64,000 nucleotides of DNA from positions 74,881-138,880 of the IMG/VR virus record IMGVR_UViG_2756170199_000003, one strand, 5' to 3'. Position 1 is the first letter of the stretch, and each line of letters begins with the position of its first letter. Of the stretch, positions 19,069 to 51,220 are shown in pieces. The translations under genes were made by a program, and so were the position numbers. The notes under the pieces were generated by a model that was not told where the DNA came from, did not search any database, and worked only from the letters and a program-made list of their open reading frames with translations. The DNA is from a virus. Taxonomy: Duplodnaviria > Caudoviricetes.

Positions 19069-19076
19069 TATATCAC
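19069..19076 (+). promoter_or_regulatory. TATATCAC putative phage early promoter
   Basis: One of five intergenic copies, about 50 nt before GGAGG-ATG 19129. Confidence 0.6.
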
Positions 19077-19128
19077 CGATGCGGAGTCGATCAGATCTCC
19101 ACAACATTTCTTTACGGAGGACCACGAC

Positions 19129-19470
19129 ATGAACCATGCGATTCAGGAAATGTTTTCCAGTTGTGTGAAGTATTTCGACGCGCTCAGCTATCTGGCCGAA
19201 CGCAATGCCTCGGTGAGTTTTGCACGGGTCAATCTGGGCGAGTACTCGGTCGTCCACCTGCGCTGCGGAAACGCCACCGTGATTTCGAGCGAGATCATTC
19301 GCGTCTTCGACCGGGAGGGTAACCCGGTGGATAAGGTCACGCTGCCCTACACGCAGCAACGTGCCTGGTACAAGCGACTCGTCGTCGAGGAAGGCTTTCC
19401 CGCTGCGAACCTGATTGAACTTCTCGATGAACGCAGTCGCGATTATTTCTGGCGGGAGCGGCTGCAGTAG
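19129..19470 (+). CDS. Hypothetical early protein
   Basis: GGAGG RBS, ATG 19129, 113 aa. Confidence 0.55.
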   Translation: MNHAIQEMFSSCVKYFDALSYLAERNASVSFARVNLGEYSVVHLRCGNATVISSEIIRVFDREGNPVDKVTLPYTQQRAWYKRLVVEEGFPAANLIELLDERSRDYFWRERLQ

Positions 19471-19587
19471 GTCAGGGAGTCGTCACACACAACAGCTACG
19501 GGATCATGGATGCTGGTTGGGCAGCATCCATGATCCCGTAGCTATTTTTCTTCGCAATCCGAACTCATACACAAGGACCAATACGCT

Positions 19588-19944
19588 ATGTTTGCCAAGA
19601 TGCTGATGGGCGCTGCCAAGGAAAACCGCCACGTTGGAGTTCCCCGTTCCATAGTCGAGGGTGAACACATCGAATTCTCGTACGACCTTCATGGACGGCC
19701 TTTCATGAAGGTCTGGCGTTTCGGGAGCTGCGAGGAGCTCCCCGTGTTCGGCGACGTCTACCTCATGTCCGGAACCGGCGAGACCATCGATCGTTTCAGC
19801 CCGCCGCTGAATTTTGTTGGTCGCGGCGCCGACGGCTGGAAAGACCGCCCCGGCGATTCAAAATCGCCTCCCGACCACACACCGCCGCCGGCGAACCTCC
19901 CATCCGTTCCACGGTTGCTTACAGGACTAACCCGTCATGTGTGA
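19588..19944 (+). CDS. Hypothetical protein
   Basis: AAGGA RBS, 118 aa. Confidence 0.5.
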   Translation: MFAKMLMGAAKENRHVGVPRSIVEGEHIEFSYDLHGRPFMKVWRFGSCEELPVFGDVYLMSGTGETIDRFSPPLNFVGRGADGWKDRPGDSKSPPDHTPPPANLPSVPRLLTGLTRHV

Positions 19945-25027: not shown

Positions 25028-25543
25028 CTACCTGCGCGCACCTTGGGATGGACTGGTTTCTTTACGTGAGGGACGCGACGCTTCGCCTGAAGCCAGCATC
25101 GTGCCGCGGCAGCCTAGCGCACCGCACCGGCAGGCATACTGCGCGCGCGTGGCACGGGACGTCCGTACCGGCAGCTCCAGCGCGTAGTCGATAAAGAGCT
25201 CTTCGCCTGCGGCAATGCTGCGCGTCGCCTCGATATAGACGCGCCCGTTGTCCTCTACCGCCTCGCAGTTCGCGCTGCAGGCGTGATTGAGCCATCGCAC
25301 CGTGTTACCACCGCGGCCGCCATCGATCACCCGCCCGTCGGCAAGTCCAAAGAGAAACGTGTGGGCTTCGTGCTCGCGTTTCGAGTGAAAGCGCATCGCC
25401 TCGGTCCAGCTTGTCACAAACCCCTTGTATTGCGCGATGCGGTCACCTGCGGCCAGTGCCCGCTGTGCAAACACCCCCCTGCCGTGAACTGGCGAGTGTC
25501 GCACCACGAACCGCCTTACGTTGGACGTCAGTTCCCGTTTCAT
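25028..25543 (-). CDS. SET-domain protein lysine methyltransferase with post-SET cysteines
   Basis: SPVHGRGVFA, RWLNHACSANC, GEELFIDY and CRCGALGCRG motifs. Confidence 0.92.
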   Translation of the reverse strand: MKRELTSNVRRFVVRHSPVHGRGVFAQRALAAGDRIAQYKGFVTSWTEAMRFHSKREHEAHTFLFGLADGRVIDGGRGGNTVRWLNHACSANCEAVEDNGRVYIEATRSIAAGEELFIDYALELPVRTSRATRAQYACRCGALGCRGTMLASGEASRPSRKETSPSQGARR

Positions 25544-28157: not shown

Positions 28158-29279
28158 TCATGCATTTACCGTGCGCACGGCCACGCGTGTCACGTTTGCC
28201 TTGCGCTCAATCGTGTCGAGCTCATCGAGCACGGACTGGCGCGTGAGCGCGTCCATCACACCGTCAAACAGACGCTCCTGTCTCCAGCCGAGAAATGTAC
28301 GCTCAACCAGATTGATTTCGGACTGGTTGCGTGTTCGCGGTGAACCCGCCGTCGCGCTCAATACAAAATCAAGCATCGGCAGGCGCGCGATCGCGAGTGC
28401 CCACATAACCTGTCTTGTCGGCGCCATGTCAGGAAGATGCATGGCCTCTTCAAGGTTGCGGCGCGCTGCCACCGGCACGCTTTGTAACACCCCCACGAAA
28501 TTCTTGCCTTGCCTCTCCAGGTTCACTACGATTTCCTCATAACAGCGATCGAGTCGTGTCGCTACGTCGACCAGGGCAAATGGATGCTGCCGGGTCGACC
28601 ACCCTGCAGGTACACGCGCCTGCACACAGCGAATCCGGTTGAGGAGAGTCTGATCGAGTTGACTGAACAGCATGTTGGGTAGCACGAACCCGTGAACGAA
28701 CATCGTGAGGGATTTTTCATCCACGCCACCCGTCTTTCTTTTTTCCTCTTCACGAAAGGCGCGATACTGAACCATCAACATGGGCAAATTGATAGCGATC
28801 ACCGCCATTCCTGTTTCCGACCCTGCAAACCGGCCATCCGGGAGATTCATTCCCAGATCGCTGCCCGAATGTCTCAGCACGCGTAGAGGTGTGGCATTGC
28901 GCCAGTCGCGATGGGCAAGCATGAGATCAAAATACTCTGTATGAACAACGAGAATCTCATCGTGGCCCGCGCCGTAGAACACGCCATTCCAGATTTTCCC
29001 ACGGGATATTGAGGACGTCATCTTCATTGCCGTCGACAGATTGAGCGCCATCGCGTCGACATTGGCATGGTAACGCTCGAGCGTGAGCGCGAGCGGCACA
29101 TCGACGCTCTGCACCAGCCTGACCACAGGGTGATCGCTTCTGACTGCCCCCGCAGCATGCCGGTAGTAGCGGATGACCTGCCCGAGATTGCGGCGCAGGC
29201 CCGCGCGCACGGCTTGCCACGCCCCTGGCACCTGAATGCCCTGGAGCGAGCGTGGTACCAGGTTGAATAACTTGTGCAT
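28158..29279 (-). CDS. Conserved phiKZ-like protein (gp52-like by synteny)
   Basis: 373 aa on the opposite strand between DNA polymerase and chimallin, as in phiKZ-like genomes. FVHGFVLPNML motif. Confidence 0.6.
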   Translation of the reverse strand: MHKLFNLVPRSLQGIQVPGAWQAVRAGLRRNLGQVIRYYRHAAGAVRSDHPVVRLVQSVDVPLALTLERYHANVDAMALNLSTAMKMTSSISRGKIWNGVFYGAGHDEILVVHTEYFDLMLAHRDWRNATPLRVLRHSGSDLGMNLPDGRFAGSETGMAVIAINLPMLMVQYRAFREEEKRKTGGVDEKSLTMFVHGFVLPNMLFSQLDQTLLNRIRCVQARVPAGWSTRQHPFALVDVATRLDRCYEEIVVNLERQGKNFVGVLQSVPVAARRNLEEAMHLPDMAPTRQVMWALAIARLPMLDFVLSATAGSPRTRNQSEINLVERTFLGWRQERLFDGVMDALTRQSVLDELDTIERKANVTRVAVRTVNA

Positions 29280-29600
29280 GGTTCGATATATCGAGTGAAA
29301 GAGATTCGCCCATAAAATTTGAGCGCCCCGGTGCCGCCAGGCGTGGCTGGCACGCGTGTACGGGTTGCTGCCCGCTCTACCGGAGAAGGCAAGTGCCGGA
29401 ATTCTTCATCGCGTAAGAATTTACTGCGGCCGCCCATATCCTGTGGAGAGGACGTTCGCATTCCCCTCCATCTGGCTGGCTGAATGAGCCCGGCCAGGGA
29501 ATGCCGTGCCATGTCTCTTCATGTTGACGTGATTTTTCGTTCCAGCAGTGCACCTTGTGCGCGTCGCCGGATGTGGATCTATTCAACGGAATTTCACTGA

Positions 29601-29608
29601 TATATCAC
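29601..29608 (+). promoter_or_regulatory. TATATCAC putative phage early promoter of chmA
   Basis: About 70 nt upstream of AAAGGA-ATG 29676. Confidence 0.65.
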
Positions 29609-29675
29609 CCACTTGTCATTAGCTAGGAATGCTAACGACCGTATACGTTATTCAACCTTGACGAAAGGAATTGCC

Positions 29676-31685
29676 ATGGCAGTGAAACTCCCTTCAAACC
29701 ACGCCGGTGACGAGCCGGGTGCAGACTCGAGCATGGCCCAGGCGTTCAGCCAGGCCCAGCAGACGGAGAGCGAGCGGTTCTCGTCGCAATCCGGAGCCGC
29801 AGAGGCACGCGAACGTCCAGCAGGCACGGGTGGCCACTTTGCATTTTCGAGTTCGACCCATTTCCTCGAGACCGTGCTCCCGGCCAATTCGGAGAGCGAG
29901 GTTCTCACGAAGATCCACGACATGCTCAAGGCGCGGTTCGTATCCTCAAGCCCCGAGCACGAACTCACACTCGTGCCGGTCAATCGCGATGACACCACGC
30001 AGCTCGAATTTTCGGTCATGGTGATCGCGTTGCGCCACAAGTCATGGCCCGAACTTGGTGTCGCCTACTACACCATGATCCTCGAGGGTTCGGCACCTGA
30101 ACTCCCGCCGATCCTGCGCTCCGAAGGCGGCGAAACATTCGATGATCCGCGCTTTCCCAGCGACATGAACACGGCGGCGCTTGACGCCGAGGTCCGCGAG
30201 CGGCTGATGCGCGTCTTTCCGCAGCATCCGCTGTGGAGCGCTGGCGTGGGTGTAGTGCGGCGCGACTTCAACCCGGAAAACAGGGAGCTGGCCCACAGGC
30301 TGGCCAAGCGCGTGAGCGACGCGTGTGTGCTGGAGCTCAAGCGACACCAACCAGGCGGATTCCACGATCTGAACCTGGTCGAAGCCGTCGGCAGCGATAC
30401 GCTGGTCATCCGTCCGACCTTCGGCAACGGGCAGATTTACGACGTCATGGGTCATCCGGTCCGCGGTGATATCGAGATCCTCAGTACGATTCCGGGCAAA
30501 CAGGTTCCTGGTCAGCCGGAGCTGACGATGCGCGACACGGTCGTGTCGGTGGTCCACGGTTTCGTGGATCTCGTCTGGTCGCCTGAAGAACCGCAGATCC
30601 TGCCGTACATGCAAACGCCCGCGGCCGCCGGCGTCAACTCCGCGCTTCGCCGGAAGTACTACCCGCGCTTTGTGATCACAAACTGCGGCGCCGCCCAGGT
30701 GCCGACGCTGGGCGGCCAGTTGCTCTCGATCATGATAGCGACCGCGTGTCTGTCCCCGGGTCTGTGGGTGGAAGCTTTCCGTCCCCCACAAGGTCATGCG
30801 AGCGGCAATGAGGTCAACTGGAGAAATATCGGCGCCCTGAACATCGAGGCGAACCTCGAGAACGACCCGAGCGGCTACGGCACACCGCTGAACAGCATGC
30901 TCGACTCGTTCATCCGCGAGACGGGCCCGAACGGCAGCCCGTTCCGCACGCTCATCGCCAACACCATCCGTGAAAAGCTGGTGGTCTCGATGGACATTGT
31001 CGAATGCGGTATCGAGTCGTATCTGAGCGAAGTGCTCTATCTCGCCGCCGAGGGCAATTCAAGCAACAGCCGGCCGGCCAACATGCAGATCATCCAGTCG
31101 ATGGAAGATCTGACAGACGGCCACTTCCTGCCGATTTACAACCGCCTCTGGCAGCAGGCCAACCCTAAGCTCAGCCTGCGGCCCGAGGACCGGCGTCTGG
31201 TCACCGACGAGTGCAACCGGATTCTCAAGGGAACCCTCGTCTACGGTGGCGAACTGATGTCGACGGACTATGTGGACTACCTCGCGAACCTGAACGTCGC
31301 GGGTCCGAACAATCACGAGGATGTCCTCACATGGTCCGATACCTTCTCGAACGTCGGCATCAAGCTCAACCAGCGCGTGGCCAAGCGCTCGAAGATCACC
31401 AAGGCGATCGCTGGCCCGGCGACCAAGTTCACCGCGGCAGCCCGCCGCGTCACACTTGCGAGCGACGTACTCGCCGCAGGGTTGATGGCGCTCGGCGAGC
31501 TCAAGCTGAACATGGTGTTTCAGTCAGCGGGGCTCGGACGGCCGCAGTACCAGCGTGCGGTCAATCCGTTCCTCGACGCCGCTGCGCTCGATCCGAATGT
31601 CAACGCCGGCTTCTTCGGCAGCGGCTTCGGGACTCCGTCGGCGCAATACGGCAACCGTGCGGGCTTTAACCGCTTCATGTCCTGA
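29676..31685 (+). CDS. chmA: Chimallin, major phage nuclear shell protein (phiKZ gp54 / 201phi2-1 gp105-like)
   Basis: ~670 aa immediately upstream of the nvRNAP beta' gene, the conserved chmA locus. Disordered N-terminal arm, GFVDLVW, YYPRFVIT, W..AFRP, RNIGALN, and a Gly/Phe-rich C-terminal tail. Own promoter motif and strong terminator. Confidence 0.78.
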   Translation: MAVKLPSNHAGDEPGADSSMAQAFSQAQQTESERFSSQSGAAEARERPAGTGGHFAFSSSTHFLETVLPANSESEVLTKIHDMLKARFVSSSPEHELTLVPVNRDDTTQLEFSVMVIALRHKSWPELGVAYYTMILEGSAPELPPILRSEGGETFDDPRFPSDMNTAALDAEVRERLMRVFPQHPLWSAGVGVVRRDFNPENRELAHRLAKRVSDACVLELKRHQPGGFHDLNLVEAVGSDTLVIRPTFGNGQIYDVMGHPVRGDIEILSTIPGKQVPGQPELTMRDTVVSVVHGFVDLVWSPEEPQILPYMQTPAAAGVNSALRRKYYPRFVITNCGAAQVPTLGGQLLSIMIATACLSPGLWVEAFRPPQGHASGNEVNWRNIGALNIEANLENDPSGYGTPLNSMLDSFIRETGPNGSPFRTLIANTIREKLVVSMDIVECGIESYLSEVLYLAAEGNSSNSRPANMQIIQSMEDLTDGHFLPIYNRLWQQANPKLSLRPEDRRLVTDECNRILKGTLVYGGELMSTDYVDYLANLNVAGPNNHEDVLTWSDTFSNVGIKLNQRVAKRSKITKAIAGPATKFTAAARRVTLASDVLAAGLMALGELKLNMVFQSAGLGRPQYQRAVNPFLDAAALDPNVNAGFFGSGFGTPSAQYGNRAGFNRFMS

Positions 31686-31732: not shown

Positions 31733-31837
31733 CGCGCAGGTATTTGAGCCTGTACGGCCTGTGCATAGGTTTTTATTGAACCGGGTAATCCAGTGCAGGT
31801 ACCCCCTTCATGCGCACCACCCGCACGGAGAAAGAAA

Positions 31838-33343
31838 ATGGGAATCAGCCTTCGCCCGATCGACCACGACCAGGTCTTCCATTACCGCACGTCCCGGGAA
31901 CCCATCATCGTCAACGATCTTCCCGACACCACAACCGAAGAAAAGAAATATGTCGATAACCTCATCTTCACGCGCTACGATCTCATCCACTCCGACCTGC
32001 TGTCGAACATCCCCTCGTGTGCCTGCGGCAATACGCTCGGGGTAGACAAGCTCGGCAACGGTCACGACATTCGCGCGGTCGTCTGCCCGGACTGCCACAC
32101 CGAAGTCACCGCGCCGTATCAGGGCGATCTCGAACCGCTCATCTGGATGCGCGCGCCCAAAGGTGTGAAGGCGCTCATCAAGCCGCGCATGCTGACGATG
32201 CTCAGCGAGCATTTCCAGAAAAACAGCTTCGACGTGATCCGCTGGATCTGCGATCGGACGTACAAGGCGCCCGTAAAGGAGCCGCCGGTCATGGAGGCGG
32301 TCCGCGCCTCAGGCCTGCCCCGCGGTTACAACCATTTCGTCGAGAACTTCGACGCCATCATGGCGTTCCTGTTCAACCTGAAGCTCTATCCAAAGAAGGA
32401 ACTTGCGCCGCTCAGGGAATTCATCACGCGGTACCGAAACGTCATCTTCTCCCAGTATCTGCCGCTACCGAACCGGTCGCTGCTGGTGCTTGAGGAAACG
32501 AACCACGCGGCTTACACCGATTGCACCGCGCCGATTGCAATCGACGCGATCCGCATGATGGTCGGGATCGATTCGCCGGCGGCGGTGTATTCCGACATCG
32601 TGCGTGAAAACCGCACGATCCGCATGCTCTTCCAGACGGCCGGCTATTACGACATCACATTGCGGGAGTTTCTCGCGTCCAAGTCGGGCGTGTTCCGCAA
32701 GAACGTGTTCGGCACGCGCTGCCACTTCGCTTTCCGTGCGGTCATCAGTTCGAACACAGGCCCTCACGACTACTCCGAGGTGCATATTCCGTGGAGTGTC
32801 GGGGTCGTGGTGTTCGAGTTGCATCTGAAGAACTTCCTGATGCGCGAAGGCATGACGCCGTGGGAAGCGGAAACGTACCTGAACGCACACGTCAACCAGT
32901 ACAGCGAGAAGCTCGATGCGTATTTCAAACGCCTGATCGAAGAGTCGCCCTGGCCTGGGATACCGGTGACCGTGCAGCGAAATCCGAGCCTGCATCGTGC
33001 CAGTATCCAGCTGCTGTTCATCACGCGCGTCACCCGCGACGTCGCGCAGCCGACAGTCGTATTCAGCATTCTCGACGTCACCGGGCCCAACGCGGACTAC
33101 GACGGCGACATGATGAATCTCGTGCTCCCCATCGATCACGTCCTAACCCGCGAGCTTTATCCCCTCATGCCGCACCAGAGCGCATTCAGCATGAACGAGC
33201 CGCGTGCACTTTCGAAGAATCTCTCGATGCCAAAGACCGTCGTGCTGACGATCAGCAACTGGATGCACTGGCCAGAGTCGGAGCTGGACGCACCCGACCC
33301 CGCAGTATTGCAACGCATGGCGCTCATCCCCGAGGCGGCATGA
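31838..33343 (+). CDS. Non-virion RNA polymerase beta' N-terminal/catalytic subunit (phiKZ gp55-like)
   Basis: Zn-finger C.CG...C..C, KSGVFRKNVFGTR, RAVISS, QRNPSL, catalytic NADYDGD. Confidence 0.93.
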   Translation: MGISLRPIDHDQVFHYRTSREPIIVNDLPDTTTEEKKYVDNLIFTRYDLIHSDLLSNIPSCACGNTLGVDKLGNGHDIRAVVCPDCHTEVTAPYQGDLEPLIWMRAPKGVKALIKPRMLTMLSEHFQKNSFDVIRWICDRTYKAPVKEPPVMEAVRASGLPRGYNHFVENFDAIMAFLFNLKLYPKKELAPLREFITRYRNVIFSQYLPLPNRSLLVLEETNHAAYTDCTAPIAIDAIRMMVGIDSPAAVYSDIVRENRTIRMLFQTAGYYDITLREFLASKSGVFRKNVFGTRCHFAFRAVISSNTGPHDYSEVHIPWSVGVVVFELHLKNFLMREGMTPWEAETYLNAHVNQYSEKLDAYFKRLIEESPWPGIPVTVQRNPSLHRASIQLLFITRVTRDVAQPTVVFSILDVTGPNADYDGDMMNLVLPIDHVLTRELYPLMPHQSAFSMNEPRALSKNLSMPKTVVLTISNWMHWPESELDAPDPAVLQRMALIPEAA

Positions 33344-34026: not shown

Positions 34027-34128
34027 CCGCATTTTCATTATCCGGAAGGGCGTGCCTGTCCTTCCGGATCCGCACGTTCTTCCTTTTTTTCTCGCGCGCC
34101 CTATTCCGACTCATGCGCAAGACAGACC

Positions 34129-34136
34129 TATATCAC
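34129..34136 (+). promoter_or_regulatory. TATATCAC putative early promoter
   Basis: Follows a hairpin/T-tract at ~34040-34090 and precedes ATG 34196. Confidence 0.55.
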
Positions 34137-34195
34137 CTCTGTGGAAGCCGGAAAAGCCTCCGGCAACTCCATCATATCGGAGCGACAGACGCAAG

Positions 34196-34754
34196 ATGGC
34201 CCCATTCGCAAACGACGATACAACGCTGACCGTTGCGGTCAGGACGACGTCGAGTGTTTTACACGTACTGCGCGCAAGTGATACAGAAACCTTCGTGCTT
34301 CCGGCTTTCATCCGTGACGATGAAGCCGTCGCCATTTTCCACACCATCGAAGATCACGCCCCATTCTGCGAAATCGCGTTCAGGTAGCGCGTTATGCCCG
34401 TGCGGGCATTACACCGTCACCGGAGAAAATTTGAAATTCACTGAAATCCAAACGTTTGACGATCTTGCACACTGGTCCGTCCGGTGGGCAAACGATGAAG
34501 CAGCAATGCACAAGTTCGAGAAGTGTATGGCCCATCTGTGCCGACAACTCGAATCCTGTGGTGGTCTGGAGCGCGTGGTGTTCAGCGCGACTATCGGTGA
34601 GCTGTTTGCCGACACCGGTGAATCGATACACGCGTACTTCTTCGAATTTAACGACCTGATCTACAGCTTCCCTTACCACCTGCAGACCGGGAGATTTTAC
34701 GACGCGCGTTATATCTCGCCCGACGTTCCGGGCATGAACAGACTGATCCAGTAA
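34196..34754 (+). pseudogene. Possible frameshifted hypothetical gene (34196-34387 plus 34233-34754 frames)
   Basis: A short ORF with GGAG RBS stops at 34387. A protein-like frame continues to 34754 without its own obvious RBS or start. Confidence 0.3.
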
Positions 34755-39506: not shown

Positions 39507-39644
39507 GCGCTCCAGCTCACTGTTCGTGATTCCGTTTCGACCCGGAGACATTTCCTTACGAACTGTACGCGAGGCAGCCAGACCTGGCTGCCCGCTTTCT
39601 TTCCCCAATGAAACGACACCAGGAATCCAAAGGAGATTGAGCGA

Positions 39645-39652
39645 TATATCAC
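39645..39652 (+). promoter_or_regulatory. TATATCAC putative early promoter
   Basis: About 40 nt before GGAGG-ATG 39690. Confidence 0.65.
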
Positions 39653-39689
39653 TGTCCTGCTGAATTGCCAGGCGCTTTTCTGGAGGGAC

Positions 39690-41270
39690 ATGGTGAAACT
39701 AAGAATCAGCAAGATAGGACTCGCCGAAAACACCCGCACCGAAGTTGAACTCGAGCATCAGGGCAAGACGATCGAGTGGAATGTTTCGGAATTCAGGAAT
39801 CTCATCAAAAACCTCGACTACGACGTTTTCGAGCAGATCAACCAGTACTGGGCACGAATGCCGCCCGCAAGGCTTGACGAGGCATTCACGGTCTATAGCG
39901 AGATCCGGGACGTCTTCCGGGAGTGTTACGAAACACATGCATTGATGCGAAGGCTCCAGGAGCCCGTAGCGAAGCTTTGCGAGCTTCATACGCTCGAGGA
40001 TATCCGCCACTGGATCGACTTCCACGGCAGCCTGCGATGGCCTGACGATGTGAGGGATGAGTTCGTGATGTACGAGATGCCCGGTACACGCGAAGGTACG
40101 TATTTGCGCGAGGAATACGGCTGGCTGGTCGCTATTGCCATCGCGCTGCGCGTGATCTTTCCCGTGTGGGGCGAATTCATTGCGCGCATCCGCGCCGAGG
40201 TACCAACGGGCTGGAAGGAATTCTACGCGTTGCAGCTTCTGGCACGCACCTCGCTTGGCCAGAGCCCCCACATGACGCGGCTTCGTACCTATGTTGAGCT
40301 CAACGCCGGGATCGAAGCGATGCGGGGCGATGTCGGCTCGAGCGCACATGTCTTCAAGGGCATCAGCACGGAAGACTACCCGACGCTGCTCGCCGCGATC
40401 GTGCTCGTACGCAAGCTGAGTATCGCTGACGTGCGGGGACTCGACGCCTCGTCGAATCTCGTCTCCTGCGTTTTCATGTCGATCAGGCACAAGATCCGCC
40501 CCGGCTCTGAAGGAGGATTCAACGGCATCATCAAGGAAAAGAAGGAACCCGAAACATACGGTCAGGACGACGCCAACCAGCAGTCGCGACTTGAGGGGTG
40601 CAAGGAGAAGATGCCGGTTGCCGACGGCAAGATCGCGCCCTTCGTCGACTATGCACGCGACATGCGTCACATCGCGAGACGGATCGCACCGGACATGCCG
40701 CCCGATTATCTGGAAATGTCGCTGGAATCGGTCAGGGCGCTCGAGCAGGTGCGAGAGCGGCGCGTGCAGAAGATCCTGACCATGTATGTCCTGAACTACC
40801 GCAACCAGTTGCGCTCGCGCTCGCTTTTCCACCTACTCCCCTCACAGATGCTGGAGGCGATCGCCGTGGCCCAGGCCGTGTTCTGGCACAAGGGCTATCG
40901 CGAACTGGCCGCGCTGGTGAGCGCGCTTGCGGTCTCCGACACCGACGTCATGTACCTCGGCAGCATGGAAGCGCGCGCAAAAATCCCGCAGGCCACGATT
41001 GAGGAACTCGAGCGCTGGTACCCGTATCCGCGTATGCCCGGCGGAAAGCAGTCCGGCAAGCAGAAAGCCGCCCGCGTGCCCACCAGTGCCGAGGTCGCCA
41101 TCGATCTCGTGCTCAAACAGCTCGATGAAACCGGCTGGCGTCTCACGCTTCCAGCGCCATGGGTCGAAGAACTCACGCGCAATCCACGCGAGCGGCACTA
41201 CCCCGTCCCCGGAAACATCCGCGTCAAACTCGCGCAACTTGCCGTTGCGCTCGCATCAAGGAGCTTCTAA
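39690..41270 (+). CDS. Non-virion RNAP promoter-specificity subunit (phiKZ gp68-like)
   Basis: 526 aa. F..IN.Y, TYL..EY..L and PVWGEFI motifs. Conserved position in the gp65-gp75-like block. Confidence 0.65.
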   Translation: MVKLRISKIGLAENTRTEVELEHQGKTIEWNVSEFRNLIKNLDYDVFEQINQYWARMPPARLDEAFTVYSEIRDVFRECYETHALMRRLQEPVAKLCELHTLEDIRHWIDFHGSLRWPDDVRDEFVMYEMPGTREGTYLREEYGWLVAIAIALRVIFPVWGEFIARIRAEVPTGWKEFYALQLLARTSLGQSPHMTRLRTYVELNAGIEAMRGDVGSSAHVFKGISTEDYPTLLAAIVLVRKLSIADVRGLDASSNLVSCVFMSIRHKIRPGSEGGFNGIIKEKKEPETYGQDDANQQSRLEGCKEKMPVADGKIAPFVDYARDMRHIARRIAPDMPPDYLEMSLESVRALEQVRERRVQKILTMYVLNYRNQLRSRSLFHLLPSQMLEAIAVAQAVFWHKGYRELAALVSALAVSDTDVMYLGSMEARAKIPQATIEELERWYPYPRMPGGKQSGKQKAARVPTSAEVAIDLVLKQLDETGWRLTLPAPWVEELTRNPRERHYPVPGNIRVKLAQLAVALASRSF

Positions 41271-41273: not shown

Positions 41274-42752
41274 ATGAATATCCCCACCCGCATCGCCATC
41301 AAACGCCTGATCATCTTCGAGACGGGTACGTACAACACCCAGTACATGCGCCCCTATGACAATGAACTCCAGGGGACCGGACTCAATATGGTCTGCGAGG
41401 CACTCCAGGGCGAAAGCCGCTTCACCCCGGCGCGCCTTGCCGGCATCGCAAACCAGATTGTGACCCCGCGGGCAACACCCGAGAAAGCCATCGGTATCGT
41501 GAACGGCTGGGACACGCCGCGATGCCGGTTCGTGATGGAAGTGGAAACCCAGAACATGGGTGGCGCGACCAGTTCGTCGGTGATTCTTGGCTGGACCAGC
41601 CACATGGGCATCATCGATGAAAGCGGACGCCGTATCGATCCGAACATGCAGTTCTTCGTGAACTCCGTGATGCAGGTGCGCACTCATATCGAAGCCACGC
41701 CGGCTGGCAACCAGGTCTACACCAACGTTACCGAGAACGCCCAGGTGCTGGTCGATCCGACGTACTTCGATGCGTATGTGAAGGACAAGACGACGAGCAT
41801 GCGCCCGGAGGACATGTACGCGACGATGGGTCTGAGCCATCTGCGCAACCTTCGCGATACGCTCGATACGCGCACGACCCTCACGCGCACGCCCGTAGCC
41901 TCGAACCGGACCAACTCCATCGCCGCCTTCTACGCGGCCAACGTGCTCGACAACTACCGGAAGGCGGCCGACAGCAACAACTTCGGTCTGCAGCCCGAAA
42001 CCGAAGTGCTCGATTCCGCACGGGGCTACGCGCAGGAGAGCCTGCTCGCTCTCAATCCGTTCTTCCGGGTGATGCAGGAGTACCAGGACGGCATGCTCAC
42101 CAACTTCTTCACGTGGTCCGACCTGTGCAGGCTGGACCCGGAGGTTGTGAACAAGGTCCAGCCGCGGCGGCTCAGACCGGACGTACTCGTCCATCGTGTC
42201 AGCAGTGGCATGTCGGCAGACTGGGAAGCATCCAACCGGATCACCCAGGTTGCCGCCCTCCTCGCCCAGTCCGTGCCAGCGCTGATGTCCGTGCTCAAGC
42301 TGAGCAAGCTCGTGTTCACCGCGACCAACGGTCAGGTCTTCTCACCAGGCTCGGCCAGCATCATCAACGGGCAGTCGTCCATCACGTTCACGGTTATCGA
42401 TGCCAACAGCTTCTCCGCGGAAGATCTTTCGCCGTACCTCAACCAGTTCAGGATCAATCTGGAGCACATGATCCTCAACGATGTGTCGCACCACAACCAG
42501 TTCGACTTCGCGCTGAGGATGGAGGTCGACCTGCTGGGCGAGACCTGGATCCACCTCTCGCTCGACAGGGGACCCGTTATCACCTATGCGACACCGAGTT
42601 TCGCGGATGCGCTCAATCCACCTGTCCTCACGAGCCAGACCGACCTGAGCCGCCGTCTGGCGGGCGACTTCCACGAGATCTGCACGAGCATCACGAACTA
42701 CGACGGCACAAGTGAGATGGCGCCACGCAGAACGCAGTTCGGGCTCGTTTGA
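41274..42752 (+). CDS. Probable nuclear protein-import factor PicA/Imp1 (phiKZ gp69-like)
   Basis: 492 aa following the gp68-like gene. ETGTY..QY.RPY, I.NGW...R.RF, IDP.M.F.VNS, MRPED and P.FAD.L..P motifs. Confidence 0.62.
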   Translation: MNIPTRIAIKRLIIFETGTYNTQYMRPYDNELQGTGLNMVCEALQGESRFTPARLAGIANQIVTPRATPEKAIGIVNGWDTPRCRFVMEVETQNMGGATSSSVILGWTSHMGIIDESGRRIDPNMQFFVNSVMQVRTHIEATPAGNQVYTNVTENAQVLVDPTYFDAYVKDKTTSMRPEDMYATMGLSHLRNLRDTLDTRTTLTRTPVASNRTNSIAAFYAANVLDNYRKAADSNNFGLQPETEVLDSARGYAQESLLALNPFFRVMQEYQDGMLTNFFTWSDLCRLDPEVVNKVQPRRLRPDVLVHRVSSGMSADWEASNRITQVAALLAQSVPALMSVLKLSKLVFTATNGQVFSPGSASIINGQSSITFTVIDANSFSAEDLSPYLNQFRINLEHMILNDVSHHNQFDFALRMEVDLLGETWIHLSLDRGPVITYATPSFADALNPPVLTSQTDLSRRLAGDFHEICTSITNYDGTSEMAPRRTQFGLV

Positions 42753-42878: not shown

Positions 42879-44162
42879 ATGACACCAACGCTCATTGACG
42901 TCTACAGGCAGTTACTGAAGACAGCGAATCTGTCCGTCACGGCCGACAACATGATTTCCGGCACCCTCCTGGGTGAGACCGAGCCCGTGCTGGTCGAAGG
43001 CAAGCGGCTCGTACTGCCAACGAATGAATTTCAGACCGCGGACAAGTCGGAGATCGTGCTGTTTCATCCGCTCGCAGAGCAGGTCACGCGAGGCAGCTCT
43101 CCCGTACTCGATAAATATCGTGCGCTGCTGGTTCATCACCTGGACATGATCGCAAGCCTTCAGATGAAGCATCTGTTGCGTATTGCCAGCTCACCCGAGC
43201 TGCACAAGGATCTGAGCCCCGACCAGTCCGAGTTCCTCTCGTTCGTCAAGGAAGCCGACGAAAAGACCATGGAGCTCCTCGAGAAAGTGCTGGACGTGAT
43301 GGAAATGGGCCAGACCGCGCGCCAACCCGTTTCGATTTTCCTGAAGAAGACCGGAACGCTCGCCGGCAAGCGCCACAAGCGCGTGGGTGTCGTGAGCTTT
43401 CCGCTATGGCAGGAGTTGCAGAAACCCGAACAGGATATCTGGGGCGTCGCGTGCCGCAAGAAGGACAAGGAAACGCTCACCGCGCTGCTGGAGTTCATGT
43501 TCCCGCAAATCGGTGAACCCGAGGCATACAACCGCGGATCGGACTCGGGAATCGCGACGAATCTCCACGCGCTGATGCAGGCAGCACTTGCCGTCGTTGA
43601 GGCACTGAACGACATCACCCAGACGTTCGACATGCCCGAGAAGTTCCTGATCGACACCGACTGGCAGGAAACCTTCATGAACCTGAATCTGCTGCAGGCG
43701 GAAATCTGGCGTGTCCCGCCACAGGCGGGCAACGAGGGGGTACCCTGGGACGAACCGCAGCCGGCGGCCAGTGCGACGTCGACGGCTGTGACCCGGATGG
43801 AGACACATCTGGAAAGCACGCGGCGCCCGTTCAACGACACGAAGGCGCGAGTGGCATCGCAACCTGCTGTGAATAGTGGCGTCAGCGGGCAATCGCGCCC
43901 GGAGGCTGGACTCGAGTACACGAAGGACGGGCTCGATTTCAGCTCGGTAATACGCGCGAATCCGGCGCTCGCCAGCACGGGGGCTCCCCAGGTTCAGCCG
44001 GCTGCCCCACCGCAGACCTCGCAGTGGGCCCAACGCGCAATGGAGGCGCGCTCGCGCCCGCCGATGTTCCAGCGCGGCAACGAGAGCTGGTCAGGAGGCG
44101 GTAGCACCAGCGGCAGCATTTTCCCGGGCACGTCCGGCGGTGGGCGCCGGGGCCTGGTCTGA
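42879..44162 (+). CDS. Conserved phiKZ-like protein (gp70-like)
   Basis: GKRLVLPT, FHPL.E and PPQ.GNEG motifs, with a disordered C-terminal tail. Confidence 0.6.
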   Translation: MTPTLIDVYRQLLKTANLSVTADNMISGTLLGETEPVLVEGKRLVLPTNEFQTADKSEIVLFHPLAEQVTRGSSPVLDKYRALLVHHLDMIASLQMKHLLRIASSPELHKDLSPDQSEFLSFVKEADEKTMELLEKVLDVMEMGQTARQPVSIFLKKTGTLAGKRHKRVGVVSFPLWQELQKPEQDIWGVACRKKDKETLTALLEFMFPQIGEPEAYNRGSDSGIATNLHALMQAALAVVEALNDITQTFDMPEKFLIDTDWQETFMNLNLLQAEIWRVPPQAGNEGVPWDEPQPAASATSTAVTRMETHLESTRRPFNDTKARVASQPAVNSGVSGQSRPEAGLEYTKDGLDFSSVIRANPALASTGAPQVQPAAPPQTSQWAQRAMEARSRPPMFQRGNESWSGGGSTSGSIFPGTSGGGRRGLV

Positions 44163-45013: not shown

Positions 45014-45045
45014 GGTGCACATCCTCACGAAAAACGGTTGAGACC

Positions 45046-45053
45046 TATATCAC
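45046..45053 (+). promoter_or_regulatory. TATATCAC putative early promoter of the nvRNAP beta/beta' operon
   Basis: About 90 nt upstream of ATG 45143. Confidence 0.65.
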
Positions 45054-45142
45054 CCCTGTAGCACCCGAACGGGCACCGCACAGAAGCTTTTTTGTGCTGT
45101 GTTCCAGCGGGAGCGGTGGAGACGTTTTTTCAGGAAGACCCC

Positions 45143-47443
45143 ATGAACGATCTGAGTGAATCACATGCGATATCGGCAGCAGCAGATTTTGCGACCGGCG
45201 TATTGCGTGAAGAACCCAACGAGCTCCACATGGAGCTGCTCAACATCCTGAGTCTGAATCCCTGGGACGGTAACGACAGTGCCGTGCGAAAGCAGATGTT
45301 TGCTTCTCACCTCGGCCAGATGCTGACTTTCAAAGGTGCGACGGAGCGGTACTGCCAGACCGGCGCCGAACGCGAATTCGCGAAATACACGTTCTCAACG
45401 CGAGTTCCGGTTGACTGCCAGGTGATCCGGATCATCGATCGTTACCGGGTGACGCCCGGCGAAGATAGCGTGATCCGCAGTCGCCAGGACAATCCTCACA
45501 CGCTGATCATCTACGAGGACGTCAACACCAGTGAGATCGGCTGCATCAACATCCAGACCCATACCTCGTATCACAGTCACTTTGGATTCCGCAACGCAAT
45601 CCGGCCCGTGCTCTCACATATCCGGCCGGGCGACTATCTGGCAGCGGGCACGATCCTGACCGACTCGCCTTCGGTCACGGAAACCGGAGGATATAAATAC
45701 GGGCGCGAATGCAATGTAGCGTTCATGACGATGCCACCGACGTCAGAGGACGGGCATCTGATCTGCTCGGATGTACTCAAAGAATTCACGTTCAACAGGT
45801 TCGAAAGTCGCGTAGTGGAATTCGGCCACCGATATTTCCCGCTCAATACTTACGGCGATATCACCTGCTTCCAGGGCTTCCCCAACATCGGTGATTTCGT
45901 ACGGCCCGACGGCCTGCTTATGGCCTTGCGCTCTTACGACCGCGATCCGCAGAGCTACGATCGCGAGCTCGCCATCGTTGAACAGGGCGTTCATGACCTG
46001 ATGGAGGTCGACCATGTCTTCGACCGGCTGATCTATGCGGGCGCGGGTGGCGGACGGGTCATCGACATCCGGGTGCATCACGACCGCCAGGCGAGTGTGT
46101 TCCCGACGCCTCGGGGCATGGAGCAGCAGGCGTCGCGCTATGACGACGCGCTTCACGAGTTCTACAGCGATATCGTCGGGGAATATAAACGCCTCGAGCG
46201 TGAGCGAGGCGCGGAATATCTGCGACTGACACCCGAGTTTCGCCGGCTGGTGCGCGAGGCGCTCGACGCCACGATGCAACCGAAAGAGCGCGTCTTCAAG
46301 CTCTATCGTAATGCGCCGATTGACGACTGGCGAATCGAGTTCGTAATCGAGTACGAGGTCACGCCCACCATCGGATTCAAGATCACCGACACACATGGCG
46401 GCAAGGGCGTGATCTGCAAGATCGCCCCTCCCGAAGCGATGCCCGTGGACCAGGACGGCAATCGCGCAGACATCGTGTTCGCACCGAATTCGATCGTCTC
46501 ACGCGAGAATCCTGGCCGCGCCTACGAGCTCTTCATCAATGCGTATTCACGCGACGTCGTGAAGCAGATCTGCCAGTGGTTCGGACTGGAACCTCGCGAG
46601 CGGAACCCACTGCCCAGAATCCGCGAGATCGAATCGACGAATCCCGCCCTCTTCCAGCAGGCACTGGACCATCTCGTCGGCTACTACGCCATCGTGGTAC
46701 CGAACATGGCGAAATGGTTCGCACCCGATCCAACCCTTGCGGCCGACAAGCGGTACACGAGACCGATGGCCGAACATCTGGCCAGCATCATCGCGGCCGG
46801 CATGCTCACGCTGCATTACCCGCCCGATAATCCGCGACCAGCCGCAGACATCGTGAGACTTCTGCGGAAGAACTATCACTCGACCTATGGACCTGTCAGC
46901 TACATCGGGCACAACGGCGAGCGACGGGTAACGAAGGCGCCGGTGCGCATTGGAAGCATGAACATCATCCTGCTTGAGAAGACTGCGGACGACTGGACAG
47001 CCGTCTCCTCCGGCAAGACACAACATTTCGGAGTCCTGTCACCGGTTACCAACGTCGACAAATACGCCCTGCCGTGGCGACCCCAATCGATCCGTGCGTT
47101 TGGCGAGGCGGAGATGCGACTCGTCGCGGCGTATTGCGGTCAGCGAGCGGTCGCCGAGATAGTCGATCGCAACAACAGCCGCGAGACGCACCGGGAAATT
47201 CTCGATGCGATCCTGCGTGCGGAGAAGCCTTCCGATATCGAGTGCGCGGTTGACCGCTCGCGCGTGCCCTACGGCAACAACCGGCCGTTACAGCTGGTGA
47301 AGCATCTGCTTGCATGCATGGGCATGGAGTTCGAGTACACGCCCTACGAGCCCGACTGGTCGAGCCCCGGATCGCAGCAACCCGATCCCGGCGGGCAGAA
47401 AGTCGGCCCTCCCCCAACTGCCGAACTGGAGGTTGCACCATGA
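45143..47443 (+). CDS. Non-virion RNAP beta C-terminal subunit (phiKZ gp71/73-like), uninterrupted
   Basis: S..R..M..SH..Q, EDG...., GFKITDTHGGKGVI, ADIVF.P.S..SR.N and R.FGE.E motifs. Confidence 0.92.
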   Translation: MNDLSESHAISAAADFATGVLREEPNELHMELLNILSLNPWDGNDSAVRKQMFASHLGQMLTFKGATERYCQTGAEREFAKYTFSTRVPVDCQVIRIIDRYRVTPGEDSVIRSRQDNPHTLIIYEDVNTSEIGCINIQTHTSYHSHFGFRNAIRPVLSHIRPGDYLAAGTILTDSPSVTETGGYKYGRECNVAFMTMPPTSEDGHLICSDVLKEFTFNRFESRVVEFGHRYFPLNTYGDITCFQGFPNIGDFVRPDGLLMALRSYDRDPQSYDRELAIVEQGVHDLMEVDHVFDRLIYAGAGGGRVIDIRVHHDRQASVFPTPRGMEQQASRYDDALHEFYSDIVGEYKRLERERGAEYLRLTPEFRRLVREALDATMQPKERVFKLYRNAPIDDWRIEFVIEYEVTPTIGFKITDTHGGKGVICKIAPPEAMPVDQDGNRADIVFAPNSIVSRENPGRAYELFINAYSRDVVKQICQWFGLEPRERNPLPRIREIESTNPALFQQALDHLVGYYAIVVPNMAKWFAPDPTLAADKRYTRPMAEHLASIIAAGMLTLHYPPDNPRPAADIVRLLRKNYHSTYGPVSYIGHNGERRVTKAPVRIGSMNIILLEKTADDWTAVSSGKTQHFGVLSPVTNVDKYALPWRPQSIRAFGEAEMRLVAAYCGQRAVAEIVDRNNSRETHREILDAILRAEKPSDIECAVDRSRVPYGNNRPLQLVKHLLACMGMEFEYTPYEPDWSSPGSQQPDPGGQKVGPPPTAELEVAP

Positions 47444-49437
47444 GACGCTTCGCTGCCAGGACGCTGCTGGGCCACAGCACTGAGGCGCTGTGGGGCATGC
47501 TTTACGGGCCCTTCCGGCTGGTCTTTGACGACGGTGAGCTTGAGGTGGATCACCGCTCGACGCTGTACAGCAGCTATGGCTGGGATCTCCTCAGGGAATA
47601 TCCCGCGGCACCCATGCTCATGCGGCATCACGTGACGCATGTCCTGAATGGTCGACGCCTGAACACCGACACACACCTGAAGCTGCTGGCCAACGTCGAC
47701 TGGGACGTGCTCGACGCTTACGGAGAGCACGGTCAGCGCGATCCCTCCGTGACGATCGACCGGATCGGCCGCCGGACCTGTGAGATCGTCAACGCGATGT
47801 ACAACGATCTGTCCGTACGCCTGGAGGAGTACGTCGTCTCGTTCGATATCACGGACTTTGTTGATGTGGTCGATCATCCACCGATCGTCAAGGCAAAGAG
47901 GGCTATCTACGCGGTGCCGCTCGACAAGGTCACAGACCGCATGCTCGACGAAGCGTATGCGGATGTGGGCAGGATCATCCGCGAAGATCCTGCGCTCGAT
48001 CGCAATCCCATTGTGATCGGGGCGCGCTCGAACACGGTGCGCTTCGAGCAGTTGCTCGAGTGCGTGGCGTTTCGCGGCAAGATCACGGACATCGATTCGA
48101 ACCAGTTCGAGTTGCCGATCCTGCCGAGCTACACCGAAGGCATCCGCGGTTTTCGTGATTCGCTCATCGAATCGCGCTCGGCGGCCAAGGCACTCTTCTT
48201 TGCGTCCGCGCCGCTGCAGGATGCCGAGTACTTCTCCAGACGCCAACAGCTCATGGCGATGAATATCCAGCGTCTTCATCATGGTGACTGCGGCACTACG
48301 GAGTTCACGCACTGGATGGTGCGCAAGGAGGACCTGCGGCTGCTCGCCGGGATGAACCGGCTCGATGAAGAGTCAGGCGAACTGCTGTGCATCAGCAAGC
48401 AGGACACGCATCTGGTCGGCAAAACGATCCGGTTGCGTACCGTACTGCATTGTGCGCATCCCGATCCGGCGGGAGTGTGTTCAACCTGTGTGGGTGAGCT
48501 TGCCCGATCGGTTCCCGATGGTACGAATATCGGGCACCAGTTCTGCATGGTGCTGTTTGGCCAGTCCACGCAGCTGGTGATCTCCATCAAGCACCTGGAC
48601 AAGTCCGCATCTATCGAACCTGCCGTGCTCCTTGAAGCCGACAGGCTGTTCCTCAAACTTGGATCCGACGCCAATTCGTATCTGCTCGCCGATCGTCTGA
48701 AGGGAAAGAACATCAGACTCATCATTCCAGCGGAGGCCATACCGAACATCAACGACATTTTCGAAATCGACGATGTCGAGAACCTGAACATCGCACGCTT
48801 CTCCAGCATCGGGCGCATCAGCATCCTCGTGGGTACCTCGGACGAGGCGACCGGGCCTGACATTCCGACCCGTGCCGGTCAGCGCATCGCGTCCATGACC
48901 CATGAACTGATGCGGCACATCAGGAAGGTGGGCTGGACGAATGACGGGAAAGGCAATCACGTCATCGACATGCATGGCTGGAATGCGTCGCATCCCATTC
49001 TTGCCTTGCCCTTCAAGCACTTCAACATGTCCGATCATTCGAAAGACATTGCGAAACTGCTTGAGTCAAGCGTTGGCATGATGCAGGCACGGGACAAGGA
49101 TACGCGGCCGGACGACGCGCTCGTCGAACTCTTCGACCTCGTCAACAGCAAGCTCGATGTGAGCCTGGCCATCCTTGCCATTGTGCTCAAGCAGGCCATG
49201 ATTGTCTCGGCGGAGAACCGCGACTACAGCTTGCCCAAGCCAGGGATGACCGCCGGGCTGGGTGTGATGTCGCAGTCGATGAAACACCGCTCTCTTTCTG
49301 CTGCGATGGCGTTTGAACACCACCGCGAAGTGCTGACGGACCCGGTCAGCTTCCTGCACAAGCGGCGTATGGATCACCCGTTCGACGTGTTCCTCATGCC
49401 ACGCGAAATCCTCCAGCCCGAGACGTTGTCCACCTGA
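47440..49437 (+). CDS. Non-virion RNAP beta' C-terminal subunit (phiKZ gp74-like)
   Basis: GGAGG RBS with ATGA overlap. RG..TDIDS, ESRSAAK, EYFSRR.Q, DCGT, Zn-site C..P...VC..C.G, IS.KH and RSLS..MAFE motifs. Confidence 0.9.
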   Translation: MRRFAARTLLGHSTEALWGMLYGPFRLVFDDGELEVDHRSTLYSSYGWDLLREYPAAPMLMRHHVTHVLNGRRLNTDTHLKLLANVDWDVLDAYGEHGQRDPSVTIDRIGRRTCEIVNAMYNDLSVRLEEYVVSFDITDFVDVVDHPPIVKAKRAIYAVPLDKVTDRMLDEAYADVGRIIREDPALDRNPIVIGARSNTVRFEQLLECVAFRGKITDIDSNQFELPILPSYTEGIRGFRDSLIESRSAAKALFFASAPLQDAEYFSRRQQLMAMNIQRLHHGDCGTTEFTHWMVRKEDLRLLAGMNRLDEESGELLCISKQDTHLVGKTIRLRTVLHCAHPDPAGVCSTCVGELARSVPDGTNIGHQFCMVLFGQSTQLVISIKHLDKSASIEPAVLLEADRLFLKLGSDANSYLLADRLKGKNIRLIIPAEAIPNINDIFEIDDVENLNIARFSSIGRISILVGTSDEATGPDIPTRAGQRIASMTHELMRHIRKVGWTNDGKGNHVIDMHGWNASHPILALPFKHFNMSDHSKDIAKLLESSVGMMQARDKDTRPDDALVELFDLVNSKLDVSLAILAIVLKQAMIVSAENRDYSLPKPGMTAGLGVMSQSMKHRSLSAAMAFEHHREVLTDPVSFLHKRRMDHPFDVFLMPREILQPETLST

Positions 49438-49530
49438 GCGCCAGTGGCAAGGAGCGGCAACCAGAAAATACCTCCCCAGGGCATCTGTTGGCAGACAGAT
49501 GCCCTCCTTTTCTTCATCGAGATTTTTGTC

Positions 49531-51078
49531 ATGGCGGAGTTACGCATATCGACACGATCGCATCATTTCGTGGTCGACCAGATGTCGCCCCAGGGCAGGC
49601 AGGCCACGGAGAGATTCGCAAGGCAGTTCATCCACTATGGTCGCCGGCAACGCGCCCAACGCTATAACAGGTACAGCGCCCGCAACGCCCGCTCCGTCAG
49701 CGAGTACTCTGCGTGGCGCGAGGACCGCCGCGAGTGTCGCTTCCATATCAACGTGCTCGAGCGCTTCGAGCAACACCTCAAGGACTACGGACTCGATCAT
49801 GAATCTCTGGTGGAGCGGGTCGCAGAAGTTCCACCTCCTGCATGCAGGATCGCGCTCCTGATTCGCGAAGGCTGGTCGCTGCGTGACTACCAGGAGCCGG
49901 CTGTCAATTACGTCACTGCGGATGCGGGCTCACGATCACGGTTTCTGGGTCTGCAGACTGGCAAGGGCAAGGGGATCACTGCGCTTTTCGCAATCAGGGA
50001 TCTCGCAGTGAGGACGCTCGCCTTCCTGCAACCGAAGTACATCGAAAAATGGGTGATGGACATCCGCGAGATCTGTCAGGTCGAACTCGAAGACGTGATG
50101 GTCGTGCGCGGCGTTCAGCATCTCAAGGCACTCCTCACGATGGCCGGTTCTGGCAGTCTGCACAGCCCGATCGTGATCATCAGCAGCAAGACCATGCAGC
50201 GCTGGATCAACGTCTACGAGCAATATGGCGAGGAGACGCTCAAGATGGGCTACGCCTGCCTGCCTGATCAACTGATGGGTTGGCTTGGGGTGGGCTTGCG
50301 GCTGATCGATGAAGTGCACCAGCATTTTGCGATGCAGTTCCGTCTGGATCTCTATACGCACTGCGAACGTTCGTTGTCGCTTTCTGCAACGCTGCTGCAC
50401 ACCGACGGCTTCCTGAACCGCATGTACGAAGTCGCGTATCCGGACGCGACGCGTTACAACGGGCCGGCCTATGACCGGTATGTTCGCGCCACTGCCCTCT
50501 TCTACCGGTTCAGGCACCCACGACATATCCGCTTTCTCGATCCCCTGAGCCACAGCTATTCGCATTATCGCTTCGAAATGAGCGTAATGAAGGATCCGGC
50601 CGTGCTGGACAGCTATCTGGATCTGATCGACAGCATTGTGAAGTCGAAGTATGAGCTCACTTATCGGCCCGGAGAAAAGCTCGTGATCTTCTTCGGCTCT
50701 GTAGCGATGTGTACGCGCGCGACAGCGTTCTTTCGCGCGCGCTATCCGGGCCGGGATGTACGGCGTTATGTTGAGGAGGATCCGTTCGCGAATGCGATGG
50801 AGCCCGACATGGTCATTACGACCTTACAGTCGTACGGCGCCGCATTTCATCCGAAGGAGCTATCCACCGTCATTCTGACGGTCGCTGTGAACAGCCTCCA
50901 GGCCAATCTGCAGGTCCTCGGACGGCTGCTTCCACTTTCGGCTGGGAAGACTCCGGAATTCATCTATCTGGTCTGCATGGATATCGCACAGCACCGGATC
51001 TATCACGAGAGCAAGGTCGAGCTCTTCCGGCAGCGCGCATTGCACTGCGAAACGCAGTACGTGCATGCGCCGATATGA
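49531..51078 (+). CDS. Superfamily 2 DEAD/DEAH helicase (phiKZ gp75-like)
   Basis: Q motif LRDYQ, QTGKGK, DEVH, SAT and Q.LGR motifs. Confidence 0.88.
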   Translation: MAELRISTRSHHFVVDQMSPQGRQATERFARQFIHYGRRQRAQRYNRYSARNARSVSEYSAWREDRRECRFHINVLERFEQHLKDYGLDHESLVERVAEVPPPACRIALLIREGWSLRDYQEPAVNYVTADAGSRSRFLGLQTGKGKGITALFAIRDLAVRTLAFLQPKYIEKWVMDIREICQVELEDVMVVRGVQHLKALLTMAGSGSLHSPIVIISSKTMQRWINVYEQYGEETLKMGYACLPDQLMGWLGVGLRLIDEVHQHFAMQFRLDLYTHCERSLSLSATLLHTDGFLNRMYEVAYPDATRYNGPAYDRYVRATALFYRFRHPRHIRFLDPLSHSYSHYRFEMSVMKDPAVLDSYLDLIDSIVKSKYELTYRPGEKLVIFFGSVAMCTRATAFFRARYPGRDVRRYVEEDPFANAMEPDMVITTLQSYGAAFHPKELSTVILTVAVNSLQANLQVLGRLLPLSAGKTPEFIYLVCMDIAQHRIYHESKVELFRQRALHCETQYVHAPI

Positions 51079-51220
51079 ACGGCATGCCCCCGTATGTGTG
51101 AAGGCATCCGTTTTAATTAGTAATCCGAACTTAATTGAAACTGGATGTGAACACATATCACGACACCGGAGCACGCCGTGGGGCCGTGCCTTCACTTATT
51201 TACCCAGGAGGGAGATGATC

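Follow-up and report, generated by a model that had tools for sequence, protein, structure and literature searches.

The 64-kb stretch analysed here (the window, 60% GC) is the final part of the 138,880-bp IMG/VR record IMGVR_UViG_2756170199_000003 (G000), and it carries a short motif, TATATCAC, ahead of several of its genes. The motif is very probably the −10-like core of a phiKZ-type early promoter, the class read by a virion RNA polymerase (RNAP). From the position of a conserved G downstream of the core and from the known members of the class, we infer that transcription would start at this G, would be early, and would be carried out by the virion RNAP (vRNAP). In phiKZ, early promoters number 28–32, and the vRNAP consists of gp178, gp149, gp180, gp80 and gp176. 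Comparisons were made with contig 5 of P. adhaesiva ZD32-2 (C5; 284,264 bp, a separate contig in a Paraburkholderia isolate genome, examined whole) and with a further IMG/VR record, G002. Positions without a prefix refer to the window.

The window holds six copies of TATATCAC, all on the plus strand, where 0.38 are expected, and 0 of 100 shuffles reached six or more; the whole 138,880-bp record has eight forward copies and no reverse one. An earlier note on this DNA, made from the letters alone, had proposed enrichment in the intergenic DNA of the replicon as a check, and an unbiased 8-mer count bears this out: TATATCAC is the most over-represented 8-mer of gene-upstream intergenic DNA both in G000 (7 observed vs 0.29 expected) and in C5 (6 vs 0.26). 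The exact plus-strand copies listed by that note at 19069, 29601, 34129, 39645 and 45046, as well as the variant CATATCAC at 51154, are all present at those coordinates. Each of the six is intergenic, co-oriented with the next gene and close to its start codon (52, 67, 59, 37, 89 and 53 nt from the core end, respectively). The genes downstream of the five exact copies are also those it named, namely a 113-aa open reading frame (ORF), chmA, a 63-aa ORF and the orthologues of phiKZ gp68 and gp71-73. The sixth exact copy, which the note overlooked, lies at 8952 inside terL; since the orthologous codons of C5 read TACATCAC, a synonymous change, we regard it as a chance coding coincidence. The sites are as follows, with scores from the position weight matrix (PWM) described below.

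19049..19083, plus strand: predicted early promoter 1, core TATATCAC at 19069-19076, predicted +1 G at 19083, PWM score 37.5
29581..29615, plus strand: predicted chmA early promoter, core at 29601-29608, predicted +1 G at 29615, PWM score 39.1
34109..34143, plus strand: predicted early promoter 3, core at 34129-34136, predicted +1 G at 34143, PWM score 30.7
39625..39659, plus strand: predicted early promoter of the gp68-like operon, core at 39645-39652, predicted +1 G at 39659, PWM score 42.4
45026..45060, plus strand: predicted early promoter of the beta/beta' operon of the non-virion RNAP (nvRNAP), core at 45046-45053, PWM score 31.0
51134..51168, plus strand: predicted early promoter with the variant core CATATCAC at 51154-51161, predicted +1 G at 51168, PWM score 30.9
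8952..8959, plus strand: intragenic TATATCAC inside terL (7764-10025, phrog_2), PWM score below threshold, not a promoter

The extended element and its counterparts in other phages

The core belongs to a longer element of about 35 nt, defined by an alignment of 16 intergenic sites from two replicons, on which the PWM was built. Relative to the predicted start G, an A/T box (A-W-T-n-A-A-a) occupies −34 to −28, a middle block (T-S-R-g-a-S-A) −21 to −15 and the core (n-A-T-A-T-[C>T,A]-A-C) −14 to −7, followed by N6 and the G; counted from the G, the conserved blocks lie near −10, −20 and −30. The G itself, a signature in the sequence only, follows the core as the seventh base at 15 of the 16 sites. 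Numbered from the first core base, a purine is present at −5 in 16/16 sites, A at −16 and −15 in 15/16 and A at −20 in 14/16, while A at −1, T at −7 and T at −18 each occur in 12/16.

Scanning with the PWM yielded nine strong sites in G000 and eight in C5, plus three weaker TATATTAC sites; all are intergenic and point toward the next gene, whose start codon follows at 17-102 nt. The control scan of reversed sequences gave no match, nor did the part of the window from 52400 to 64000. Three of the copies in G000 lie outside the window, one of them before a DNA-methylase-like gene. Searched for across all 7 Mb of the P. adhaesiva genome, the pattern AA-N15-ATATYAC-N6-G has 14 matches, all forward: nine on contig 5, three in phage-derived blocks of contig 4 (C4, described below) and two elsewhere.

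The early core of phiKZ is TATATTAC and the early motif of phage AR9 is AAATATATATTAT-N6-G(+1) (PMC7058600, PMC5312081); in phiKZ and phiR1-37, transcription starts 6 nt past the consensus (PMC5312081). Here the core reads nATAT[C/T/A]AC at all sites, TATATTAC itself occurs at orthologous sites in G002 and C5, and the agreement with phiKZ extends over seven of the eight core positions and the G six bases after the core. The further marks of the phiKZ type are also found: the start base, A/T blocks at −20 and −30, placement before early genes, and a virion-type multisubunit RNAP encoded by the same record. phiKZ itself has TATATTAC-N6-G upstream of gp54 (chmA), at a distance of 72 nt, and upstream of gp68, at 33 nt, with TTTGAGAT ahead of each; here the two distances are 67 and 37 nt. 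TTGAGA lies just upstream of the core in phiKZ and precedes two cores here, with an A/T-rich box further up. The predicted promoters before chmA and gp68 are positional orthologues of mapped phiKZ promoters. Differential RNA sequencing ties the primary transcription start site of PHIKZ054 to the early motif (PMC8244752), and the virion polymerase is reported to transcribe chmA and the nvRNAP genes first (PMC12908238, PMC10914365). The elements described here differ from those of phiKZ in that position 6 of the core is mostly C, the background is 60% GC, and a predicted promoter stands directly before the gp71-73 orthologue, with none in the phiKZ stretch examined.

The early promoters of 201phi2-1, OBP, EL, N1M2 and AR9 likewise combine extended conserved blocks at −10, −20 and −30 with a start some 6 nt past the core, although the motifs of those phages sit in AT-rich genomes and have their T/A box beside the core, and AR9 DNA contains uracil. 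Early promoters of vRNAPs are AT-rich; those of 201phi2-1 are conserved at −10, −20 and −30, and one of the six mapped precedes a gp68 homologue (PMC5312081, PMC11512511, PMC7058600). The nearest cultured phage, Burkholderia phage FLC9, has predicted sites of the same kind: CATATCAC-N6-G lies 92 nt before its chmA with a ATTCAAAAG box upstream, and its 11 copies of TATATYAC-N6-G are all on one strand, with both C and T at position 6. Overall, the earlier note's proposal of a phiKZ-like early promoter upstream of early and nuclear genes is upheld by the core, the N6-G spacing, the upstream boxes and the orthologous positions; its other half, by which a resident plasmid form would be silent by default without a classical repressor and induction would need a route to the vRNAP, is a coherent hypothesis and is taken up in the last section.

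Several observations weigh against this assignment. The orthologous site pairs behind the PWM are non-independent samples, and the predicted start base at the 45046 site is A in G000, although G in C5 and G002. There are only about 9-11 sites per ~280-kb genome, as compared to 28-32 in phiKZ. The A/T box lies about 13 nt upstream of the core, while the TTTRARR box of 201phi2-1 and OBP adjoins it (PMC7058600), so the upstream architecture is not identical to that of these two phages. Finally, some nvRNAP genes of 201phi2-1 use middle promoters (PMC11512511). The last point also favours a reading in which the sites are used by the nvRNAP as middle promoters, or by both phage polymerases; PHIKZ054 has a middle start besides its early one (PMC8244752), and a second conserved block precedes the gp55-like gene here. 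We consider this improbable: in its core, its N6-G spacing and its upstream boxes the element fits the early class rather than the late TATG class, and the motif is absent before virion genes, which have a TTTTATG-type element instead.

It is very improbable that the sites are promoters of the host RNAP, used with sigma-70 or an alternative sigma factor, from which early genes would be expressed directly by a resident plasmid. TATAT does resemble the start of a −10 hexamer, and the replicon type has parA with a parB-like gene and is found in an isolate genome as a contig of its own. Host sigma-70 promoters were the outcome that the earlier note had said would overturn its proposal, and a sigma-70 consensus scan called none at any of the six positions and found no sigma-70 features there. 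Sigma-70-like sites in the early region are in fact fewer than in shuffled sequences (3 vs 6.6 and 4 vs 5.9). The last base of the hexamer is C, while sigma-70 requires T, and the conserved upstream box is not TTGACA-like and stands 13 nt upstream instead of 16-18. Reading by host sigma-70 fails on these grounds, that is, the empty scan, the terminal C and the wrong box spacing. Moreover, the extended pattern is nearly confined to phage DNA, with just 2 of its 14 matches in the remaining ~6.2 Mb of the host genome, and the homologous phiKZ promoters work without host RNAP (PMC7618050, PMC10914365).

Conservation over ~35 nt exceeds what a minimal core would require, and a plasmid-resident element would need control of its lytic genes, which raises the possibility that the element serves chiefly as an operator, perhaps overlapping a promoter, through which a DNA-binding regulator of the phage or plasmid controls early genes. 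This explanation is hardly credible, as dyad symmetry is absent, the same architecture exists in the strictly lytic phiKZ and in FLC9, and a regulator that would bind the element was not identified, although no systematic repressor search was made.

Lineage and conservation across replicons

By its sequence, the window comes from a lineage of Paraburkholderia jumbo phages that are GC-rich, encode chimallin and form a nucleus, and this chimallivirus is distant from all isolates. Its genes run collinear with phiKZ gp50-gp75 between the DNA polymerase and the gp75-like helicase, and the window also encodes a gp50-like DNA polymerase, a gp52-like virion protein, the tail sheath and terL. Homologues of its ChmA with 92%, 55% (C5) and 49% (G002) identity were found on contigs 275-284 kb long, and two of these belong to Paraburkholderia isolate assemblies; the ChmA of FLC9 is 30% identical. 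The record G000 is classed as "provirus" and is ~52% complete. A megablast search of 18 kb against a phage collection, single-protein chmA scans of genome-contig and viral-contig sets, and an alignment-based chmA scan of metagenome contigs returned no match. Among sequencing runs, a single soil-metagenome DNA run was listed as a carrier, and no RNA run.

Eight promoter sites occur at orthologous positions in G000, C5 and G002, preceding the methylase-like, 115-aa, 182-aa, 113-aa, chmA, gp68-like, gp71-73-like and DUF4262 genes. In an alignment of seven spacers, identity is 80% within the 35-nt promoter block and 62% in the rest of the spacer. The chmA element shares 33/35 positions with C5; the element at 45026..45060 shares 31/35, while the remainder of its spacer is 55% identical. 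The first core base varies among replicons (T, C or G), and the C5 and G002 orthologues of the gp68 site read CATATCAC, whereas those of the 51154 site read GATATCAC. At one orthologous site, before the 114/115-aa gene, the core is TATATCAC, TATATTAC or TATATAAC in the three replicons; since its sixth base varies between C, T and A, the phiKZ-type TATATTAC is interchangeable with TATATCAC. This site, TATATAAC on the minus strand at G000:37968, moved together with its gene in an inversion of a ~35-kb segment (G000 12.2-47.4 kb vs C5 64-98 kb).

ChmA is 55% identical between G000 and C5, while the neighbouring gp52-like protein, gp55-like protein and DNA polymerase are ~80% identical and ParA 98%. 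Either the shell protein thus diverges far more quickly than the genes around it, or it was exchanged.

A second P. adhaesiva contig, C4 (492,647 bp), contains two blocks of chimallivirus genes, at 82-163 kb and 435-487 kb, with ~60 full-length orthologues of C5 genes (50-92% amino acid identity) and ~20 truncated ones. The vRNAP gp178-, gp149- and gp80-like genes are among them, whereas chmA, homologues of the nvRNAP gp71-73 and gp123, the major capsid protein and the C5 sheath/terL segment are missing. The motif is kept at four orthologous sites of C4 (90578, 122839, 162354 and 484544) and is absent from the 272-kb non-phage part of the contig. The C4 blocks look like a decaying relative fused to a megaplasmid.

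Predicted transcription units and other promoters

The genes and terminators of the predicted units are listed below.

19129-19470, plus strand: 113-aa ORF, unit of predicted early promoter 1 (orthologous sites C5:142217 and G002:101562)
29676..31685, plus strand: chmA (chimallin, nuclear shell protein), phrog_4795 at 1.5e-49, homologues carry PF25677
31698-31722: terminator after chmA
31838..33343, plus strand: phiKZ gp55 orthologue (nvRNAP beta'-like subunit), PDB 7OGP chain A at 9e-85
39573-39592: terminator before the gp68 promoter
39690..41270, plus strand: phiKZ gp68 orthologue (nvRNAP promoter-recognition subunit), PDB 7OGP chain B at 1.2e-34
41274-42752 and 42879-44162, plus strand: gp69-like and gp70-like genes after the gp68-like gene, in synteny with phiKZ
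45143-47443, plus strand: gp71-73 orthologue, PDB 7OGP chain C at 3e-131
47440-49437, plus strand: gp74 orthologue, PDB 7OGP chain D at 2e-96
49444-51078, plus strand: gp75-like helicase, phrog_16
51215-51781 and 51778-52380, plus strand: DUF4262 gene and an ORF behind the CATATCAC promoter, with a terminator at 52413-52441

The window thus has orthologues of four of the five phiKZ nvRNAP subunits (gp55, gp68, gp71-73 and gp74, matched to structure 7OGP); the gp68-, gp69- and gp70-like genes were matched by phrog_3209, phrog_3141 and phrog_3520. In C5, a TATATTAC-N6-G site separates the major capsid gene from the gp122/gp123-like genes, so that all five nvRNAP genes lie downstream of a motif copy. 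The virion-type RNAP genes phrog_2986 and phrog_3148 are at G000 58088-64243, upstream of the window, and gp149-like and gp80-like vRNAP genes were found by tblastn. The PWM scan placed no early motif upstream of the vRNAP genes, and a clear alternative motif was not found there either.

According to the phiKZ model, a virion-packaged multisubunit RNAP, injected with the DNA, would read the element, and the host RNAP would not. Six plus-strand units, several of them bounded by intrinsic terminators, would express the 113-aa protein, chimallin, a block of small genes, the gp68/gp69/gp70-like operon, the gp71-73 and gp74 nvRNAP subunits with the helicase, and the DUF4262 gene. [quoted passage not shown] Coliphage N4 offers a parallel, in which an injected polymerase reads a few early promoters ignored by the host RNAP and turns on a second phage polymerase (PMC4496689); however, its vRNAP, made of one giant subunit, recognises DNA hairpins, and there is no sequence or structural relation to the system described here.

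Individual units differ in detail. The one-gene 113-aa unit is closed by a perfect hairpin with a 20-bp stem (19495-19542) that scores as a terminator on both strands. The predicted chmA transcript would start with a conserved hairpin. Predicted early promoter 3, which has the weakest upstream box, precedes the 63-aa ORF at 34196-34387 and the subsequent plus-strand genes, and its counterpart in C5 was not found. The gp55-like gene lacks a TATATCAC copy of its own, as in phiKZ. Between the chmA terminator and this gene lies another block (31760-31800), containing TTTTTATTGAACCGGG and conserved in three replicons, a possible promoter of a different class serving the gp55-like subunit.

A different motif, AAATTTTATGG, lies ~40 nt before several virion genes, also at G000:39597 and 44623, and is a candidate late promoter solely by its likeness to the phiKZ late TATG motif (PMC7618050).

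29311..29317, minus strand: candidate late (nvRNAP-type) promoter AAATTTTATGG, 38 nt ahead of the minus-strand gp52-like virion gene (28158-29279)

This copy diverges from the predicted chmA early promoter within one highly conserved 399-nt spacer. CGTATG, tried as a second promoter motif, was rejected, as a positional pattern was absent.

Two leaders outside the listed units also stand out. Within ~20 nt downstream of the early promoter predicted for the methylase-like gene (PF02384), a GC-rich hairpin with a T-run is present at G000 10790-10830 and C5 62960-63000; its stem sequence differs between the replicons while the pairing is kept, and it resembles a terminator or attenuator placed in the 5' leader. 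The leader after the G000:69531 promoter (69545-69640, ~5.3 kb before the window) contains near-invariant stretches, including AAATTCTTACCGCG and CTTCAACTGG, and is kept in four replicons, with counterparts after C5:120713, C4:162354 and G002:77375; the downstream protein is only ~35% identical. An Rfam search of this leader gave no match, and it could be a conserved leader or a small RNA.

Partition genes and the resident state

Directly after the early region lie two partition genes, and the motif is upstream of neither.

53864-54856, minus strand: parB-like gene, ParB_N and HTH_ParB just below the Pfam cut-offs
54856-56058, minus strand: parA, Pfam AAA_31 at 1.6e-38, CbiA and ParA

A stretch of ~60 nt between the rep-like and parB-like genes (53775-53840), containing TATTTCAC, is near-identical in G000 and C5; it is probably an element of plasmid control and not an early promoter. 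The rep-like ORF had no Pfam match, and C5 has no head/tail overlap, which is uninformative. Further along, a stretch of lower GC content (59028-64000) carries a tyrosine recombinase (61240-62619, minus strand, PF00589), which, like the neighbouring 743-aa ORF, has no counterpart in C5, and an SRAP peptidase gene from 63308 onward (PF02586), which is also present in C5. A SET-domain gene lies at 25028-25474 on the minus strand.

The partition genes and the separate replicon-sized contigs fit a plasmid lifestyle. Alternatively, the resident contigs could represent persistent infection by a virulent chimallivirus; virulent chimalliviruses do persist in isolate cultures, although those lacked ParA (bioRxiv 10.1101/2024.12.31.630880, PMC12768965). 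By homology, it is fair to infer that the early genes would be unreadable by the host RNAP. A more speculative extension, which we regard as doubtful, is a closed loop in which the vRNAP reads the TATATCAC promoters and so yields the nvRNAP, which then transcribes the vRNAP genes, with no entry for the host RNAP, so that residence would be kept by the absence of a polymerase and not by a repressor. If this were true, induction would hinge on one host-readable promoter before a polymerase gene set.

The element adds to a known promoter class, one that is ordinary for this phage family. The six promoters and their predicted start bases are test objects for the silence and switch-on of a chimallivirus with partition genes. 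For a jumbo-phage lineage without a cultured member, the motif gives a map of early transcription, with nine sites in G000 and about 9-11 in C5, and it indicates that the phiKZ early-promoter architecture, including the chmA and gp68 positions, persists across very distant hosts and in a 60% GC genome.

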